Virus record (IMG/VR): IMGVR_UViG_3300027792_000010
Length of the DNA stretch: 64,000 nucleotides
Strand: one strand, 5' to 3'
Source: a virus
In this document: positions 1,467-51,192 of the stretch, piece by piece
Layout of the letters: each line of letters opens with the position of its first letter
Position numbering within the stretch: position 1 is the first letter of the stretch
The notes under the pieces: generated by a model
What the model was told of the DNA's origin: nothing
The model's input: only the letters and a program-made list of their open reading frames with translations
Databases searched by the model: none
Made by a program: the position numbers and the translations under genes

Positions 1467-2582
1467 TTAAACTTGGATAAATCCAACTTCATAAGGTTTG
1501 TAACGGGCACCGTACAGCCCCGTAAGAAATCGAGTCAATATGTTCACAGCTCCGATCACGTCGGCGTTGCCTATGTGACCACATTTCAGGCACCGGAACA
1601 CTTGTCCTACTCGATTCCCCCTATTGACATGACCACAGCTTGGGCATGTTTGGCTGGTATAATAAGGAGCTACAGTGCGAAAACTAACACGGTTAGTCTC
1701 GCAAGCTTGCTCAAGCCTTTTTAACCAATACCTATACGCCCAAGTGCCGATAGAACGCCGCATATTTTTACTCAAGCGGCGTTTGAGTTTACTTTTGAAA
1801 TTCATGTTCTTAAGAGCTTCAACCACGACTAAATCGATGTGTTTGAACTCTTTGACAATTTCTTGTACAACTTCATCTATTCTTTGTTTAAAAGCTCTAC
1901 GAGCCTGTTTTTGCCCATTAGAGCCATGAGTGCAGCGTTTGATACGTTCAATACAGGCTTCTGTATCTAAACCAAATTGCTGGCCATTATTAATAGAAGC
2001 AAGTGCTTTTATCCCTGTGTCAATACCGATAGCATTTACACCTTCTTTTTTCTTGCCAGCATCTATTTCGAAAGAGAACTGAACATAGTTATCTGTGAGG
2101 ATGTAGGAATTAAGGCGTTTTCCCTGAAGAGCCAATTTATTATAATGTTTATGAAACTTTATAGGTATATCAAGGATTGTATCTTCACCAATAGACTGGA
2201 GATGGAGCCAAGCATCAAATTCTTTAGAGTCCTCTTTTTCCTGAAGATCAGCTATAGTACAGGAAACATAAGCTCTTTTGCCTTTATGAATGGGCATAGA
2301 GATTTTCCAAGGCTTATCTTTCCATCGTTCTTTTACGGCAGTAATCATATCTATAGCTTCTCTGGCTGCGACCTTTCGGAGCCTAGCGGTGAGCCACGTA
2401 CCATGAGGGATGTCAACAATTTCTTTTAAGAGTTCTGATTTAGAAGGAGTTCCATTCTTCCAGAAGTAATTGATAAAAGTGTTACAGACCCGACCATACT
2501 CAGCGAGGACCTTACGAAGCTCGGAGAGTTTGGAGGCTGTAGCAAATTTAAGACTACATTTAGAAGAACGAATCAGTTTCAT
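1467..2582 (-). CDS. tnpB: TnpB RNA-guided endonuclease (IS200/605/607 family), no TnpA partner
   Basis: RuvC-I IGIDTG, RuvC-II VVVE, zinc finger TSQTCPSCGH..FRCLKCGH, RuvC-III NADVIGAVNI. All three acidic residues are present. Confidence 0.9.
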   Translation of the reverse strand: MKLIRSSKCSLKFATASKLSELRKVLAEYGRVCNTFINYFWKNGTPSKSELLKEIVDIPHGTWLTARLRKVAAREAIDMITAVKERWKDKPWKISMPIHKGKRAYVSCTIADLQEKEDSKEFDAWLHLQSIGEDTILDIPIKFHKHYNKLALQGKRLNSYILTDNYVQFSFEIDAGKKKEGVNAIGIDTGIKALASINNGQQFGLDTEACIERIKRCTHGSNGQKQARRAFKQRIDEVVQEIVKEFKHIDLVVVEALKNMNFKSKLKRRLSKNMRRSIGTWAYRYWLKRLEQACETNRVSFRTVAPYYTSQTCPSCGHVNRGNRVGQVFRCLKCGHIGNADVIGAVNILTRFLTGLYGARYKPYEVGFIQV

Positions 2583-17278: not shown

Positions 17279-17830
17279 ATGCTGCCTAAAATTTCTTCTA
17301 TACTTGATGCCATTGCCGACTCTCTTGAGGCCAAAGGTTTTATTAAAGAAGCCTATGAGATTGATAAAATTGCTGATGCTATTGAAAAACTATCTTGGGA
17401 TATAGATGAAAAACCTTTAATAGTTAAGGTTAAACCTAACAGTACTATACAAGCAGACACATTACTACTCATAGGACAACTTAAAAAAGATATAGCAAAG
17501 GCTCTAAAGGATATAGCATGGGATGCTTCGAACGCTTATACAAATTATTATGATCAAGCAACTGATAAAACTAAAGAGTTAAAATCCAGACTTAGATCTG
17601 AATTAGAAAAAGCTAAAGTTAGGATATGGTCTAAAAATAATCTTTTTAGTGGCTTGGACGTTGATTCTTGGAAATCAGGTAATTATTATGATATCTCTAC
17701 AATATATGACATAGGTGAAGAGATTAGATCCAATATGAAGGGATTTGCAAAGCATAAAAAATCTGTAAAGGGGTTAAATTTACTGGATCTTATAGCAGAA
17801 ACCTATGATAAATCAAATCCATCATTGTAG
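17279..17830 (+). CDS. Hypothetical protein with N-terminal KEA motif
   Basis: LDAIADSLEAKGFIKEAYEIDKIADAIE; AAGGAG SD. Confidence 0.65.
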   Translation: MLPKISSILDAIADSLEAKGFIKEAYEIDKIADAIEKLSWDIDEKPLIVKVKPNSTIQADTLLLIGQLKKDIAKALKDIAWDASNAYTNYYDQATDKTKELKSRLRSELEKAKVRIWSKNNLFSGLDVDSWKSGNYYDISTIYDIGEEIRSNMKGFAKHKKSVKGLNLLDLIAETYDKSNPSL

Positions 17831-17901
17831 TACTAGTGTCAAAGAGCCTCTGTCTTAATTTCTTCGCGCTCGCCTAAATACTCTCAAGCGGGGCGAATTT
17901 C

Positions 17902-18039
17902 TTACAACGTTCACTGCACAGCCGATAGTTGCCGCAAATCCTGGATAAGAAACACAACTTGCCGACTATCCAAACCGTTACTTTTAGCAGCCTCAAGTTG
18001 CTTTGCAAGAGCGGCAATTTTGGCTTGCAATTGTTGTAG
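17902..18039 (-). repeat. attC-like site (CTACAAC ... GTTGTAA)
   Basis: Stem ATTGCA-AGCC..TTGCCGC / GCGGCAA..GGCT-G-TGCAGT. Confidence 0.6.
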
Positions 18040-18138
18040 GCTGTTTAAAACAGGCTCAACATCAGCCACGTAATAAAACAACCCCTCACTTGTTTGGTAA
18101 GGACATCCGTTATGAAAATCAATTTTTTTTAAAGACAT
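17911..18138 (-). CDS. Cassette-encoded hypothetical protein reading through its attC-like site
   Basis: GGAG SD just after the core site; stop codon 3 nt before the next GTT core. Confidence 0.55.
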   Translation of the reverse strand: MSLKKIDFHNGCPYQTSEGLFYYVADVEPVLNSLQQLQAKIAALAKQLEAAKSNGLDSRQVVFLIQDLRQLSAVQ

Positions 18139-18162
18139 ATAATAACTCCAATTCTAAGTTGA

Positions 18163-18302
18163 ATACAACGGTTGATGTCTGTATGCTGTGCGGGGCCGAC
18201 GGTAGGGCGCTATACCTACACCTCCGGGTGTCCACTGTTTACCAACGGCGACCACTTATACAGTCTTCGCAGGCCCCACATAGCATACTGCATTTGTTAG
18301 GC
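18163..18302 (-). repeat. attC-like site (GCCTAAC ... GTTGTAT)
   Basis: Long stem GTATGCT-A-TGTGGGGCC / GGCCCCGCAC-AGCATAC. Confidence 0.7.
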
Positions 18303-18461
18303 GATTTAAGAAGTTGCCTCCGCAGTGTAAAGCGCATTGCCGCTTACTCAAGGCGACTGGACGTTTCGTTGCAAGCTTGCGACCTGTAACACGGTGTCTT
18401 ACTTCCGGTATGTAGAGTAATGCGCCTATAACCATAAAAGCAACCTCTTATTTCGCCCAAC
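18296..18461 (-). ncRNA. Structured 166-bp cassette B (possible ncRNA)
   Basis: Nested stems AAGAGGTTGC/GCAACTTCTT and GCGCATT/AATGCGC; same layout as 19431-19596. Confidence 0.45.
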
Positions 18462-18542
18462 GTTTGCCGCACAGATGCAGTGCGGTACGCCCAGGTTATG
18501 ATTTAACCGCATTGCACTCTTGCGGCTGTTGTTTGTCTGTGC
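18455..18542 (-). repeat. attC-like site (degenerate GCACAGAC ... GTTGGGC)
   Basis: Stem GCCGCA..TGCA.TGCGGT / ACCGCA.TGCA..TGCGGC. Confidence 0.6.
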
Positions 18543-18753
18543 TGGCCGTTTCCGCATTCTCCTGCGGCGCGTCTTCGATTTCTTCGACTTTTGTTTTAAT
18601 TGGGAACCAAAGGCGCCCCCCACCAAGGCCATCTTTTTCAAGCATTCTGCACACTGCTTCTGCTTGCTTTTTTGTTTCGTGAGTATCAGTTGTTTGGTTA
18701 TCACAAAAGCCGTGCATCGACTCCCATAGTGCTATTGACATATATCTTTTCAT
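18496..18753 (-). CDS. Cassette-encoded hypothetical protein
   Basis: AGGAG SD; stop codon lies inside the attC-like hairpin. Confidence 0.55.
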   Translation of the reverse strand: MKRYMSIALWESMHGFCDNQTTDTHETKKQAEAVCRMLEKDGLGGGRLWFPIKTKVEEIEDAPQENAETASTDKQQPQECNAVKS

Positions 18754-18806
18754 TCTTTTCTCCTGTTTTCGCGCTGCCTTTCAAATCAAAGAAAATTTCT
18801 AATTGC

Positions 18807-18941
18807 ACACAACGTCCGACAAACGTGTGAAGTGCTCATATCGCACCAAGCATAGATTGAAACTCTTCCTCGCACTTGCTGCAACGCACATTTACAACAT
18901 CAACGCCACACTGTGAGCATTTTACACTTTGTTTGTTGGTT
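18807..18941 (-). repeat. attC-like site (AACCAAC ... GTTGTGT)
   Basis: Inverse core CAACCAAC is the exact complement of this cassette's opening GTTGGTTG; stems GTGT/ACAC and TGCTCA/TGAGCA. Confidence 0.7.
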
Positions 18942-19057
18942 GTCTGTTGAGCGAGTTCCACAATTTTTTTTATGCGCTGTAACGCTTCGCGATGATGTGA
19001 CCAAGTGCCGCTATCGTTTGCAATTTTATCTAAAACTTCCAAATCTGCACTTAGCAT
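18836..19057 (-). CDS. Cassette-encoded hypothetical protein with C-terminal CxxC pairs encoded by the attC-like site
   Basis: GGAGG SD; CSQC and CSKC are translated from the hairpin region. Confidence 0.55.
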   Translation of the reverse strand: MLSADLEVLDKIANDSGTWSHHREALQRIKKIVELAQQTTNKQSVKCSQCGVDVVNVRCSKCEEEFQSMLGAI

Positions 19058-19089
19058 AAAACCTCCAATAAAATTAAGAGCGAAATTGC

Positions 19090-19152
19090 AACCAACGTTC
19101 TCGCAAATGTACGGTCGTTTTAATGCCGTACTTTGCGTGTTGGCTGTTGTTT
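19090..19152 (-). repeat. attC-like site (AAACAAC ... GTTGGTT)
   Basis: Stem CGCAAA-GTACGG / CCGTAC-A-TTTGCG with a single bulge. Confidence 0.65.
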
Positions 19153-19330
19153 ACTTGCGCTCCTTAGCTATCTGAGGTTTTGCGGCCTCCGATAGCACGA
19201 TACACCTTGCAACTCGCAGACCTTCCAAAACACCATCAAGATATGCAGAAGCATGATCGTACATTTTTACCACGTCTGGGCACTCTCCACTAAGCTCCGC
19301 AAGAACAGCTTCCCTTTCGATTAACACCAT
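19151..19330 (-). CDS. Cassette-encoded hypothetical protein (59 aa, MVLIEREAVLAELSGECP...)
   Basis: Read by hand; AGGAGG SD; TAA stop abuts the inverse core. Confidence 0.55.
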   Translation of the reverse strand: MVLIEREAVLAELSGECPDVVKMYDHASAYLDGVLEGLRVARCIVLSEAAKPQIAKERK

Positions 19331-19367
19331 AGCAAAACCTCCTATAATATAGCCGCAAGTAAATTGA

Positions 19368-19437
19368 CTACAACGTTTGACACATTATGAAGTTGCGCTT
19401 CGCAATTTACGAAGTGAACATAATGCGTTTGTTGTGC
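19368..19437 (-). repeat. attC-like site (GCACAAC ... GTTGTAG)
   Basis: Inverse core is the exact complement of the opening GTTGTGC; stem CATTATG/CATAATG; the inner stem pairs better on the + (bottom) strand through a G-T pair. Confidence 0.7.
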
Positions 19438-19596
19438 GATTTAAAAGGTTGCCTCCATACTGTTACTGTGTGCGCCCTGCGGTTTTCGATGTCTAACGGT
19501 ATGATATACATCCGCCACAATTGCGCCCCAGCATTATCCTATTCACGGTAAACGCACACCTCAAATACAAGAAAGCAACCTTTTATTTTGCACAAC
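19431..19596 (-). ncRNA. Structured 166-bp cassette A, no ORF identified (possible ncRNA)
   Basis: Nested stems AAAAGGTTGC/GCAACCTTTT and GTGTGCG/CGCACAC. Confidence 0.45.
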
Positions 19597-19666
19597 GTCT
19601 ATTATACGACAGTACCTTGTGTAACTCATTGATTTTCTTTTAGATAAAATTTTTGAAATTTCACTA

Positions 19667-19906
19667 TTATTTTGCCTTTTTAATAATGTATACAGTGTCA
19701 TGAACAATTTTAGGAGTGTGACACGAACAGCTTTCGGAATGAATTATGCATATACCGGATTGAGACGTACCGTTAGTAACAATAATATATTCATGACCCT
19801 TAATTTTATACGTATGGATACTACCAACCCCAGTATGACCTAATGAAGGCATCTGTTTAGATGAGCAAATAAATACTAAAGATAAAATAGTTATTATGGC
19901 TTTCAT
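19667..19906 (-). CDS. Small hypothetical protein with N-terminal signal/membrane segment
   Basis: Hydrophobic N-terminus; GHEYII..IIHSESCSC motif seen in small phage proteins. Confidence 0.55.
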   Translation of the reverse strand: MKAIITILSLVFICSSKQMPSLGHTGVGSIHTYKIKGHEYIIVTNGTSQSGICIIHSESCSCHTPKIVHDTVYIIKKAK

Positions 19907-47601: not shown

Positions 47602-48951
47602 ATGTTTTCAACAAAGTATCGACCATTGGATTTCAAAAGTGTCATAGGTTTGGAAGTACAGAAGGAAATACTTCAGAATATTCTAAGGAGGCAGGAGTAC
47701 GATCCTGCTTATCTTTTCTCAGGGGATTGGTCAACAGGAAAAACTACTCTTGCTAGAATATTTGCCAGAAGTATTTTTTGTGAAAATCGCAAGGAAGATA
47801 TGTCCCCCTGTAATGAGTGCTTCTCCTGCCGTGAGTTCCTCTCAGAACGCCACCCTGGATACATCGAGATAGATGCTGCAAACAATGGAACAAAGGATAA
47901 GATAAAAGAAATACGAGATAGTTTATCCTATGATTCTGTATCCAGAAGATTAGTAATTCTTTATGATGAGGCACACAATATAAGTAAAGAGGGGAAAGAC
48001 GCTTGGCTTAAGGAGCTTGAGAAGGAATATAAAAATGTACATCTGATATTCTGTACTACAGAAATAGATAAAATGCCTGACTCCCTAAAATCTCGTTGTA
48101 TGCATTTTACGATAAATCATCCCACTGAAGCACACATTAAAGATAAACTCAGATATATTAGTCTACAAAATAATTTAACTGTTGAGGACGATGCCCTTAG
48201 TACTATAGTACAAGGCGTAGGGTGCCATTATAGAGATGCTGAAAATAAGCTGCGTCAGATATCTTTTATAGGTGACATAACTATAGAGAATGCAAAGAAA
48301 GTCGTCAATATCTATAATGAAGAAGTCTCAAAGATGCTTATAGCACTATCCTTTAATATAAATGAGGCTATGGTTATAGCAGACTTCTTAGTACAAAGGA
48401 TGACCATAAAAGAGATATATAACAATATTATTAAGATACTTATTGATAGTCTTAGGTTAATTAATGGGATATCTAATGATAGTCAGACTTATAATGCTAT
48501 TCTAAGTAGTGTAGCTAAACAGTATGGGGAGTCCTTATACGAGGTTATAGATTTTATCCTATCTAAAAATAGATTAAATGATTTATCTTTATTTCAATCG
48601 GACCTTCTTCTGATACATTACAAGTACTTAAGATCTCATTTTGACCCTAAGAATACTACTGCTATCCCTGAACAGCCTACTACATCAAGTACTGAACCTA
48701 TAGAGAGAAAAAAAGTTAATAAGATGGATGAGCTTAAAACAGTAAGTTCCCCGTGGGAAAGAGCAGAGCTAATACGTAATATGAAAAAAGAAAAAAAGGA
48801 AGCTGGGGATACTCGTGTTCCAGAAGTGGTATCCTCAGAATGGGGGTCTCCTGTAGATAGTTTTGGAGTAGGCTCTATCTTGAAGAAGGAGATTACCCCA
48901 GAGCAGTTTGGGAAAAAAGTAAGGAGACTGTTGGATGAAAACAAAATATAA
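47602..48951 (+). CDS. dnaX: Clamp-loader ATPase, Pol III gamma/tau-like
   Basis: KYRP..F..VIG, TGKTTLARIFA, PCNECFSC, EIDAA, DEAH, SRC. Confidence 0.88.
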   Translation: MFSTKYRPLDFKSVIGLEVQKEILQNILRRQEYDPAYLFSGDWSTGKTTLARIFARSIFCENRKEDMSPCNECFSCREFLSERHPGYIEIDAANNGTKDKIKEIRDSLSYDSVSRRLVILYDEAHNISKEGKDAWLKELEKEYKNVHLIFCTTEIDKMPDSLKSRCMHFTINHPTEAHIKDKLRYISLQNNLTVEDDALSTIVQGVGCHYRDAENKLRQISFIGDITIENAKKVVNIYNEEVSKMLIALSFNINEAMVIADFLVQRMTIKEIYNNIIKILIDSLRLINGISNDSQTYNAILSSVAKQYGESLYEVIDFILSKNRLNDLSLFQSDLLLIHYKYLRSHFDPKNTTAIPEQPTTSSTEPIERKKVNKMDELKTVSSPWERAELIRNMKKEKKEAGDTRVPEVVSSEWGSPVDSFGVGSILKKEITPEQFGKKVRRLLDENKI

Positions 48952-49600
48952 AGATGAGGGTAAAGAACCTACCAAAAAGAGAGTTCAGGAACCATTACCT
49001 AGCATAGAAAATAAGCCTAATAAGGTAAGTAGGGTTAAAAAGATAAATACTTCTATACAGAATACAAATTTGACCTTTAAATATAAAGGGTGTGGTAGGT
49101 GGGCTATATTTGAAATAAAAGAAGATTGTGATATATCAGAAAATTATGAAGCTATTGAACAAGAGATAAAGAGCGCTTTTGGGGAAGATACAGAGTATTT
49201 TATTCCTGTATATAGGGAAAAATTTGATAGTAAAGCAGTAGGTATAACTCTTTTCGAGGGTTATATTTTCCTACGTTTTGAAAAAAATAAAGAATGTTTA
49301 TGCGACCTTGCTGACTATAATTATCTTGAAGGTCCTTTAATGAAAGGCGGAAAAATCAGTTATGTCAGTGATAAGGAAATAAACGATCTTCGGAGCAATC
49401 TTTTTAAAAAGCTACAAAAACGTTTTCCTCGTAAAGGACAAATAATAGTTCCTAAATTGGGAACTTTTAAGAACTTGGAAGGAAAAGTTGTAGGAGTAGA
49501 CCGAAAAAATAGAGTAGTTAGAGCAGTATTTAAGTTAAGTTCTAGAGAAGTTGTAGCTGATATTAATGTAATAAATTTAGATTTTGAGGAAAACTTATGA
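48935..49600 (+). CDS. NusG-family transcription factor
   Basis: NGN-like FIPV..LFEGYIFL and KOW-like GTFKNLEGKVVGVD. Confidence 0.7.
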   Translation: MKTKYKDEGKEPTKKRVQEPLPSIENKPNKVSRVKKINTSIQNTNLTFKYKGCGRWAIFEIKEDCDISENYEAIEQEIKSAFGEDTEYFIPVYREKFDSKAVGITLFEGYIFLRFEKNKECLCDLADYNYLEGPLMKGGKISYVSDKEINDLRSNLFKKLQKRFPRKGQIIVPKLGTFKNLEGKVVGVDRKNRVVRAVFKLSSREVVADINVINLDFEENL

Positions 49601-50568: not shown

Positions 50569-51192
50569 ATGAATCATTTGGTAAAAAATATGGACCCGTT
50601 TGAGATACAAAGTCGTTTCTCTACAGAGGACTTCTCTTTTTATTCATTAAAAGAAAGTTCTTTTTGTTTAGATGACTTTGAACCATTTATCCAAAAGCTT
50701 CCAAAACGTGAGATTGACCTGATCGATATGTATTATAAAAGACAGAAGAAACAGAAAGAGATCGCAGAGTTTTTTAACGTTACCCAGGGAGCGATTTCTC
50801 ATCGTTTGTCTCGCGCTAGAAAAAGATTAGCTTTTCTAAGAGATATGCCTAAAGTGTCCGGGGACCTACGTGATAACTTATCTCAGCATTTCACGGATTT
50901 TGAATGTGATATTATAGTTATTATGATAGAGACCACATGTCAGTCCAGAACTGCAGAACTACTTAATGACAAGTATGAGCTTAAATATAGGGAAAAGATG
51001 ACCCAAGTTAAAGTTAGGCATAAATTTGACCGCTCTATAGATAAGATGAAGAAGTTGAAGAGAAAGTACCCTGAATTGAAGGTAATGTACGAACTTTCTA
51101 GATATATAAAAAAGAACCTATACATGCTTCATGAAGTTGTACTACCTCATTTTGATAAGGGTTATAAGGTAGAGTATGATGGAGTGTATTGA
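50569..51192 (+). CDS. Sigma70 region-4-like HTH transcription regulator
   Basis: LPKRE..LI.MYY..KKQKEIAEFFNVTQGAISHRL.RARK.L. Confidence 0.7.
   Translation: MNHLVKNMDPFEIQSRFSTEDFSFYSLKESSFCLDDFEPFIQKLPKREIDLIDMYYKRQKKQKEIAEFFNVTQGAISHRLSRARKRLAFLRDMPKVSGDLRDNLSQHFTDFECDIIVIMIETTCQSRTAELLNDKYELKYREKMTQVKVRHKFDRSIDKMKKLKRKYPELKVMYELSRYIKKNLYMLHEVVLPHFDKGYKVEYDGVY

Follow-up and report, generated by a model that had tools for sequence, protein, structure and literature searches.

A putative integron-like array of small mobile cassettes in a large phage and its relatives linked to Xer-type recombinases

The 64,000-nucleotide (nt) stretch of IMG/VR virus record IMGVR_UViG_3300027792_000010 covered by this analysis (hereafter, the window) is part of the Joint Genome Institute (JGI) metagenome contig Ga0105099_10000004 (190,913 bp). 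It belongs to a large phage with a backbone of about 33% GC that carries tRNA genes as well as genes for ribonucleotide reductase, dUTPase, a GH108 endolysin, RecA, RuvC and clamp-loader proteins. The subject of this work is an island of about 1.8 kb within the window (17831-19660, read on the minus strand) which resembles the cassette array of an integron. The island is flanked by convergent backbone genes, 17279-17830 (plus strand) and 19667-19906 (minus strand), and has a GC content of 0.41-0.51, compared with 0.31 and 0.29 in the adjoining segments. It consists of an entry site, six cassettes and the truncated leader of a seventh cassette. The minus-strand junctions, AAC-G/TTG (in junction motifs, the slash marks the crossover point), number seven, with the G at plus-strand coordinates 19596, 19374, 19096, 18813, 18461, 18169 and 17908, and delimit units of 222, 278, 283, 352, 292 and 261 nt, in this order. 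The pattern AACGTTG, ACCGTTG or GACGTTG occurs 10 times on the minus strand of the 64 kb, 7 of these occurrences being the array cores. The features of the island, including the open reading frames (ORFs) and the hairpin sites of the cassettes, are as follows.

19597-19660, minus strand: entry (attI-like) site, AT-rich, with TATAATA at 19600-19606, then GAC, then the first crossover G/TT between 19596 and 19595
19374-19595, minus strand: cassette 1, an ORF-less hairpin of 222 nt; site 19368-19437, inverse core GCACAAC at 19431-19437
19096-19373, minus strand: cassette 2, ORF A at 19151-19330 (59 aa, Shine-Dalgarno sequence AGGAGG); site 19090-19152
18813-19095, minus strand: cassette 3, ORF B at 18836-19057 (73 aa, weak zinc-ribbon match); site 18807-18941, inside the ORF
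18461-18812, minus strand: cassette 4, ORF C at 18496-18753 (85 aa); site 18455-18534
18169-18460, minus strand: cassette 5, an ORF-less hairpin of 292 nt; site 18163-18302, inverse core GCCTAAC
17908-18168, minus strand: cassette 6, ORF D at 17911-18138 (75 aa); site 17902-18039, over the C-terminal 43 codons
17831-17907, minus strand: truncated seventh cassette, a 77-nt leader (TTGTAAGAAATTCGCCCC...) running up to the stop codon of the convergent gene 17279-17830

This layout bears out the original prediction, made from the sequence alone, of seven GTT cores some 220-350 bp apart in a region visibly richer in GC than its flanks, each unit holding one short ORF preceded by a Shine-Dalgarno sequence or a structured element. 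Such ORFs are present in units 2, 3, 4 and 6, and units 1 and 5, which are homologous to each other, each fold into a long hairpin without an ORF. The further claim, that each unit ends in an imperfect hairpin opening with an inverse core, held for the hairpin and only in part for the position of the inverse core, which in units 3, 4 and 6 falls within the ORF, 70-130 nt ahead of the next core. In unit 2 the inverse core is ambiguous, being either AAACAAC, the complement of the unit's own start with a 7-nt deletion, or AGCCAAC, the choice of the covariance model described below. The leader of the truncated seventh cassette resembles those of ORF-less cassettes (GTTGTAAGAAATAAA...) in two related arrays, L003 and L013, and beyond it the GC content drops to the backbone level.

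The hairpin sites measure 56-140 nt in the window, reach 163 nt in related arrays and share one order of elements. On the 5′ side, NNNCAAC and an A precede three stems, the first of 6 bp, the second of about 6 bp and, beyond a small internal loop, the third of about 7 bp, which leads into a variable loop; on the 3′ side, a descending arm with one extrahelical G or A leads to a 5-nt spacer (consensus xAAAC, xGAAC or xAACC) and to G/TTGNNN. The extrahelical G of cassette 3, for example, is on the 3′ arm (ACAAAGTGT opposite ACAC(G)TTTGT). In an alignment of 20 sites, of which the window contributed 3 and five other contigs 17, AAC and GTT are invariant throughout (20/20), with the local consensus NNNCAAC and GTTGNNN; relative to the attC consensus, RYYYAAC and GTTRRRY, the AAC and GTT part is present and the last three positions are not RRY (e.g., GTTGTGC). 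Pairing reaches 98.8% in the core formed by AAC and GTT and 81.7% in the two lower stems, where 10 of the 12 pairs show compensatory double changes. Taken over the entire structure tested, the covariation score is 0.428 vs 0.170 after shuffling and 0.08-0.14 with slid partners. The variable triplet, when compared with the triplet of the adjacent cassette, is paired in 36.7% of cases, which is the chance level. The covariance model built from this alignment (R1), run unfiltered on both strands of the 64 kb, retrieves exactly the six array sites, the next best match having E = 0.17. The sites used for training scored 93.3 (cassette 6), 60.5 (cassette 3) and 55.4 bits (cassette 5), and those outside the training set 41.2 (cassette 2, E = 1.3e-8), 40.3 (cassette 4, E = 2.2e-8) and 24.9 bits (cassette 1, E = 1.8e-4).

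The variable triplet follows a different rule. When cassettes are delimited by the junction regular expression alone (seven arrays, 27 cassettes), the exact reverse complement of the cassette's own GTTGNNN start is found within 19 of the 27 cassettes and that of the next cassette's start within none (0/27), with 7 matches out of 297 for other starts (Fisher p = 5e-19). The claim that the inverse core complements the opening core of its own cassette and not the following one thus stands, far beyond chance. A looser chain finder that allowed one mismatch was dropped in favor of this test on account of many false chains and of mirrored chains on the other strand. Within the window, the match to the own start is exact in units 1 (GTTGTGC with GCACAAC) and 3 (GTTGGTT with AACCAAC), includes one G-T pair in unit 5 (GTTGGGC with GCCTAAC), is one base off in units 4 and 6 (in the latter, GTTGTAT with CTACAAC, 6 of 7) and is interrupted in unit 2, where GCGCAAGTAAA-CAAC is the complement of the own start GTTGTAGTCAATTTACTTGCGGC minus 7 nt, the complementarity otherwise extending over 23 nt; the four pairs quoted originally are all correct. 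The complementarity to the own start spans 13-22 nt in units 1, 2 and 5, for which the single-strand fold energies with the own vs the next start are -24.1 vs -12.0, -21.5 vs -17.2 and -44.1 vs -34.3 kcal/mol, respectively. In cassette 1, a 44-nt inverted repeat joins the start to the stretch preceding the inverse core, and in cassette 5 a 22-bp stem is formed between the equivalent regions, with compensatory changes relative to cassette 1.

A match to the own start is the expected outcome if cassettes enter and leave the array as circles through strand exchange within AAC-G/TTG. Neither a plain palindromic repeat nor homologous exchange at a shared junction can yield this circular-permutation signature. 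The latter process underlies one alternative explanation, namely that the units are regulatory stem-loop modules between small early genes, akin to the promoter early stem-loop (PeSL) modules, that are shuffled by homologous recombination with no site-specific enzyme involved. The PeSL modules of T4-type phages are promoter-carrying repeats between small accessory genes that mediate modular shuffling by homologous recombination. Repeated stem-loops with a conserved junction and leader do separate the small phage ORFs here, the phage encodes RecA and RuvC, and most of the array-bearing phage genomes show no tyrosine recombinase, all of which would suit such modules. However, homologous exchange at the shared 8-nt junction leaves unexplained both the triplet match to the own start only and the tight linkage, in four contigs, of the entry motif to the stop codon of a recombinase (see below), and PeSL modules have neither the circular-permutation signature nor a dedicated recombinase. 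Furthermore, none of the minus-strand junctions has a predicted sigma-70-like promoter, the hairpins have no T-runs, and of the three terminator-like sites predicted, none is at a cassette junction. This explanation appears highly improbable.

Related arrays differ in cassette content. A homologue of ORF D (P0002, 62% identical) is found in the small-ORF arrays of eight phage-like contigs, with neighbors that vary between the contigs, and the start of its cassette, GTTGTAG, exactly matches CTACAAC. In one of these related arrays (L003), eight of the ten cassettes have an exact (7/7) complement of their own start. In L003, L005 and L010, the sequence reads gaagtaG/TTGGTT, a 99-aa cassette, gtaaccG/TTGGGT, and a 97-aa cassette, whereas in L006 and L007 gaagtaG/TTGGGT leads directly into the 97-aa cassette, i.e., one whole cassette fewer, exactly at G/TT beside the entry site; in L008 the same cassettes are joined to other partners at the same junction. 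The comparison of related phages on which the original prediction had staked itself accordingly came out in its favor, with a difference of one whole cassette at G/TT (L003, L005 and L010 vs L006 and L007).

The site family is not confined to these contigs. A 25-nt pattern of one site subtype occurs at 13 places in 10 IMG/VR contigs of 10-467 kb, and a search with R1 of 10 viral records (nine of these contigs and the record of L011) yielded 4-17 clustered, co-oriented sites per record in all 10 (44-467 kb), often in two arrays per genome. The arrays are richer in GC than their AT-rich backbones in both cases profiled (the window and L013). In the largest record, IMGVR_UViG_3300037067_027616 (G004; 467 kb, IMG/VR class 'provirus', 98% complete), arrays with 8 and 3 R1 matches are located at 74-78 kb and 142.7-143.9 kb, and there is no match to PF00589, the tyrosine recombinase family. 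Searches of the phage collection at the DNA level with the island and flanking sequence, scans of IMG/VR for exact matches to the window entry site and to the hairpin-cassette motif, and the use of the DnaJ-like flank gene as a synteny probe each returned no match or relative. Two local observations can be added: a 54-nt mini-unit lies between two junction cores (GTTGGAC...gaacc/GTTGGTG) at L015:5590-5643 and may be a remnant cassette, and a 73-aa gene at L003:8113-8334, whose product looks by eye like a DNA-binding protein of the ribbon-helix-helix type (ITRSKYIRYAVIKKLIED), overlaps the L003 entry site with its stop codon.

A candidate recombinase is encoded in some of the relatives. A PF00589 search of 11 array-bearing viral records gave a match in only two. 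In one of these, G005 (47.6 kb), the match is a 268-aa protein (L015:4143-4949) whose stop codon is directly followed by TATAATAagaaG/TTGTGTGGAAATAAAGGTTGC, the entry into a hairpin cassette which, like window units 1 and 5, has no ORF; the array comprises about nine cassettes and is located in the replication module, between the single-stranded DNA-binding protein (SSB)/DUF2800 genes and the DNA polymerase A gene. A 373-aa integrase found in G011, 1.4 kb past the array, was not counted as linked because it belongs to a different family. The L015 enzyme scores 130 bits against the NCBIfam model of XerA (cut-off 220) and 125 bits against that of the integron integrase, TIGR02249 (cut-off 265), and among solved structures XerA (4a8e) is the closest to it. 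Its alignment with IntI4 falls into two blocks, with about 50 IntI4 residues skipped at the place of the IntI insertion, a segment described as essential for integron function (PMC8138268). The clade to which the enzyme belongs (P0005-P0037) is sharply bounded: its members, of 258-305 aa, share 43-100% identity, and identity falls to 33% in the next matches. When the L015 enzyme was compared with one genome per prokaryote species, identity among the best 80 matches did not exceed 36% for partial and 33% for near full-length alignments.

In two further phage contigs of 47-50 kb (L030 and L031), a recombinase of this clade is directly followed by a co-oriented array of small ORFs, and in a third (L032, 42.7 kb) it is followed by the entry motif only, the contig ending about 80 nt further. 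R1 also matches L015, L030 and L031. In L015, L031 and L032, the entry motif TATAATA-N3-4-G/TTG lies directly 3′ of the stop codon of a Xer-type recombinase (266-289 aa), and the entry sites of the other clade contigs read gaTATAATAactaG/TTG, TATAATAactaG/TTG and gcgtatagtggagaG/TTG. The window entry site, cgTATAATAgacG/TTGTGC, conforms to it (TATAATAgacG/TTG), with TATAATA three bases ahead of the first core. Given this conservation behind recombinase genes, the TATAAT box that had been noticed at a position like that of attI and Pc is part of the entry motif; its presence was correctly recognized, whereas its reading as a promoter finds no support in a two-hexamer scan, which predicts none. 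In the window, the entry site is preceded by a backbone ORF of 79 aa (19667-19906) and not by a recombinase gene of the clade. The expectation that the recombinase would be found elsewhere in the genome or supplied by the host fits with these results, in that none was found in the window by Pfam searches or tblastn and relatives carry one at the entry motif; what changes is the type of the enzyme, which is Xer-like and not IntI. An independent Logan contig breaks within the entry stretch, at about window position 19642, the behavior expected of a repeat.

A precedent for a Xer-family enzyme acting on a folded single strand exists. In CTX-phi, a Xer-family recombinase acts on the attP(+) hairpin folded from one strand, by a single strand exchange, at dif. 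There, however, the whole phage genome is integrated at the host dif by the host XerCD, and there are no cassettes, arrays or phage entry site. The chromosome of Winogradskyella ursingii (NZ_JABFDH010000006.1; L041:5001-10786) encodes a co-oriented Xer-like recombinase, one of the best 80 prokaryote matches mentioned above and 31% identical to the phage clade, followed by ccaattG/TTGTAG and a series of xxCC-G/TTGNNN cores whose GTTGNNN starts have exact downstream complements; one R1 match (26 bits) is found. Unlike the phage arrays, this locus is chromosomal, its units are 800-1500 nt long and its GC content is that of the backbone (33%). The existence of such a locus makes a host-encoded helper conceivable for a phage of 33% GC.

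The parallels with classical integrons are extensive. Both systems have head-to-tail promoterless cassettes that start from one entry site, imperfect hairpins with invariant AAC and GTT, a spacer, an extrahelical base and a variable loop, and a crossover at G/TT with an inverse core that matches the own start; in both, relatives differ by whole cassettes beside the entry site. The differences concern the enzyme and the carriers: the phage-linked recombinase is a Xer-type protein of 258-305 aa without the IntI insertion (the region being about 50 residues shorter) and is co-oriented with and abuts the entry site, whereas IntI is divergent; the phage sites are mostly translated through by ORFs, and the carriers are phage genomes. 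The published counterparts closest to the island are the clusters of attC sites lacking integron integrases (CALINs) which, together with a few integrons with IntI, have been reported in phages (Qi et al., 2023; PMC9892861). Like these, the island is a cluster of co-oriented sites that has no integrase in its vicinity and belongs to a virulent-type phage genome, and some of its relatives (L015) contain DNA methyltransferase cassettes, as do phage CALINs. The CALINs of Qi et al. (2023; PMC9892861), however, were detected with the models of classical attC, comprise 2-4 sites and were assayed with IntI1, whereas the site family described here reaches 17 sites in a record and has an entry motif and a recombinase clade of its own. 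With six sites in 1.7 kb and no recombinase found in 20 mid-size ORFs or by tblastn of the 64 kb, the island qualifies as a CALIN only if its sites are counted as attC-like.

The comparison with the attC sites of a class 1 array (intI1-dfrA12-orfF-aadA2; L039) bears on this question. These sites have 5-6 nt spacers on both arms and, on the coding strand, an extra C in the 5′ arm, in agreement with the extra base on the 5′ arm described for classical attC (Nivina et al.; PMC5027507). The asymmetry of the phage sites mirrors that of attC about G/TT, in that the 5′ arm has a spacer of 1 nt and the 3′ arm holds the extra base, the spacer of 5 nt and the longer of the two internal-loop sides, and R1 gives no match on the attC sites of dfrA12, orfF and aadA2. 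For the view that the island is a fragment of a classical bacterial integron, i.e., a true CALIN with IntI-dependent attC sites that came from a host chromosome and is serviced, if at all, by a host IntI, these differences are difficult to accommodate, and so are the ORFs that cross the sites, the spread of the site family over at least 10 phage records, its position beside non-IntI recombinases within phage replication modules, and the lack of a close relative of the recombinase among the best 80 prokaryote matches. The foreign, higher GC of the island, its AAC and GTT cores, the hairpin with a spacer and an extrahelical base, the own-start rule and the recombination of published phage CALINs by IntI1 (PMC9892861) would all agree with such an origin, which nevertheless seems quite improbable.

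Most of the cassette ORFs are translated through the site, with the inverse core in frame (e.g., S-x-N-x-x-S/R-D) and the loop encoding the C-terminal tail. The patterns of homology fit a structure in which a payload is combined with a site-encoded tail: homology of the ORF C domain stops short of the tail, the site and leader of unit 6 recur in L037 (90.8% over 141 nt) with an unrelated payload, and two L003 cassettes are alike up to GCACAAC and divergent beyond it. In the latter pair (L003:9820-10134 and L003:10329-10625), the leader and payload are identical (about 165 nt) up to the inverse core and are followed by different hairpin sites and tails, which suggests that exchange occasionally takes place at the inverse core as well. 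A crossover at the inverse core (CAA/C) was also considered as the main pathway, prompted by the mirrored asymmetry, and was rejected since the cassette differences end at G/TTG; it may explain two chimeric cassette pairs.

The ORF-less cassettes recur across arrays (L003:9513-9819, L003:10135-10328, L013:10507-10752, L015:4956-5301 and, in the window, 19374-19595 and 18169-18460 on the minus strand). Each is one long imperfect hairpin in which the leader is paired with the pre-core region, with compensatory changes, and the motifs TTTTATGGTTATAGGCG and TACACTATGGAG are common to them. Such a cassette occupies the first position after the entry site both in the window and in L015, and window cassette 1 is homologous to the first post-recombinase cassette of L015. 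The two pure hairpins in the window could also suggest a different kind of single-stranded DNA element (e.g., an IS200/IS605-like element with a Y1 transposase) or structured RNA genes mistaken for cassettes, the more so as a TnpB-like gene is present in the window. This 371-aa ORF (1467-2582, minus strand) contains a Cas12f1-like TNB domain (E = 2.3e-17) and belongs to the backbone near the tRNA genes, with no TnpA seen. However, the TnpB gene is 15 kb away from the island, no Y1 transposase was detected among the ORFs tested, the units are arranged head to tail in one orientation from a defined entry site, the ORFs of four units, led by Shine-Dalgarno sequences, run through the hairpin, and no Rfam family matches, the scan of 15-23 kb (E <= 1) having produced a chance snoRNA match only. 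An origin of this kind is extremely improbable.

The payloads themselves offer few clues to function. Pfam and PHROGs searches with the four cassette ORFs gave nothing above the cut-off, ORF B has a 65% identical homologue (P0126), and an ESM Atlas search with ORF C returned phage clusters without names only. Residues 1-62 of ORF C correspond to a widespread small domain of about 60 aa (285 cluster representatives at E <= 1e-3, no Pfam match) that occupies the N-terminal, middle or C-terminal part of proteins mostly of 50-275 aa, with two repeat-containing outliers of 402 and 2200 aa. By analogy with further accessory loci of phages, the cassettes may, speculatively, encode small host-interaction or anti-defense proteins. 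Elsewhere in the window, NusG/KOW-like and sigma-70 region 4 proteins are encoded beside the replisome genes (48935-49600 and 50569-51192, plus strand).

Based on the above considerations, the island is probably the mobile cassette array of a phage-carried integron-like system that here lacks its own recombinase and in this respect is CALIN-like. This assignment rests on the anatomy of the array, the covarying fold, the own-start rule, the cassette differences at G/TT and the linkage of the entry motif to a Xer-type recombinase. Each cassette consists of TTGNNN, a leader with the Shine-Dalgarno sequence, the payload ORF (or, in two cassettes, a long hairpin alone) and an imperfect hairpin site ending in AAC-G; in the mechanism envisaged, the circular form would be inserted and excised by strand exchange in AAC-G/TTG, such that the triplet of NNNCAAC matches the cassette's own start. 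The exchange would be catalyzed on folded single strands by the Xer-type enzyme family, by analogy with IntI, and in the window phage the recombinase presumably would act in trans, coming from a co-infecting phage, from the host or from a gene outside the window.

Several findings weigh against this assignment. Only two of the six inverse cores in the window are exact, the other four being degraded, and the window's own array shows no variants, two assemblies being identical. No tyrosine recombinase was detected in the window, either by Pfam searches with 20 mid-size ORFs or by tblastn of the 64 kb with the L015 enzyme, and three array-bearing phage genomes rated at least 92% complete have no PF00589 match, which makes adjacency of a recombinase exceptional and leaves the identity of the acting enzyme unproven. 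The mirrored asymmetry of the sites and the silence of R1 on class 1 attC, described above, count here as well, and imply that the analogy with IntI may fail in mechanistic detail. Given the four degraded inverse cores and the lack of observed variants, the window array may be an orphan or a decaying, putatively inactive relic. The GC content of the cassettes (39-51%), higher than the approximately 33% of the backbone, points to import from a shared cassette pool, on which the window array probably drew.

On a broader scale, phages could maintain an integron analogue of their own, in which a GC-richer cassette pool would circulate among unrelated phages of 44-467 kb, an insertion-less Xer-type enzyme would act on mirrored hairpins, in trans in the case of arrays like that in the window, and the sites would be translated as tails, with payloads and tails re-assorted; this generalization is about as likely as not. 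No account of phage arrays that are Xer-type, mirror-asymmetric and translated through their sites emerged from full-text searches of the literature. Integrons are commonly seen as devices of bacteria in which the IntI-specific insertion is needed for folded single-stranded sites, and the present finding points to a phage-borne counterpart with the same cassette logic, a plain Xer-type enzyme and a mirrored site asymmetry. Established attC assays are directly applicable to this system, and sites located within coding sequence are of interest for the engineering of structure-specific recombination sites. If the proposed reading is correct, these arrays would represent a second route to hairpin-site cassette recombination, would bear on the origin of integrons from Xer recombinases, and would provide a route for unrelated phages to share small accessory genes, which may include counter-defense genes.

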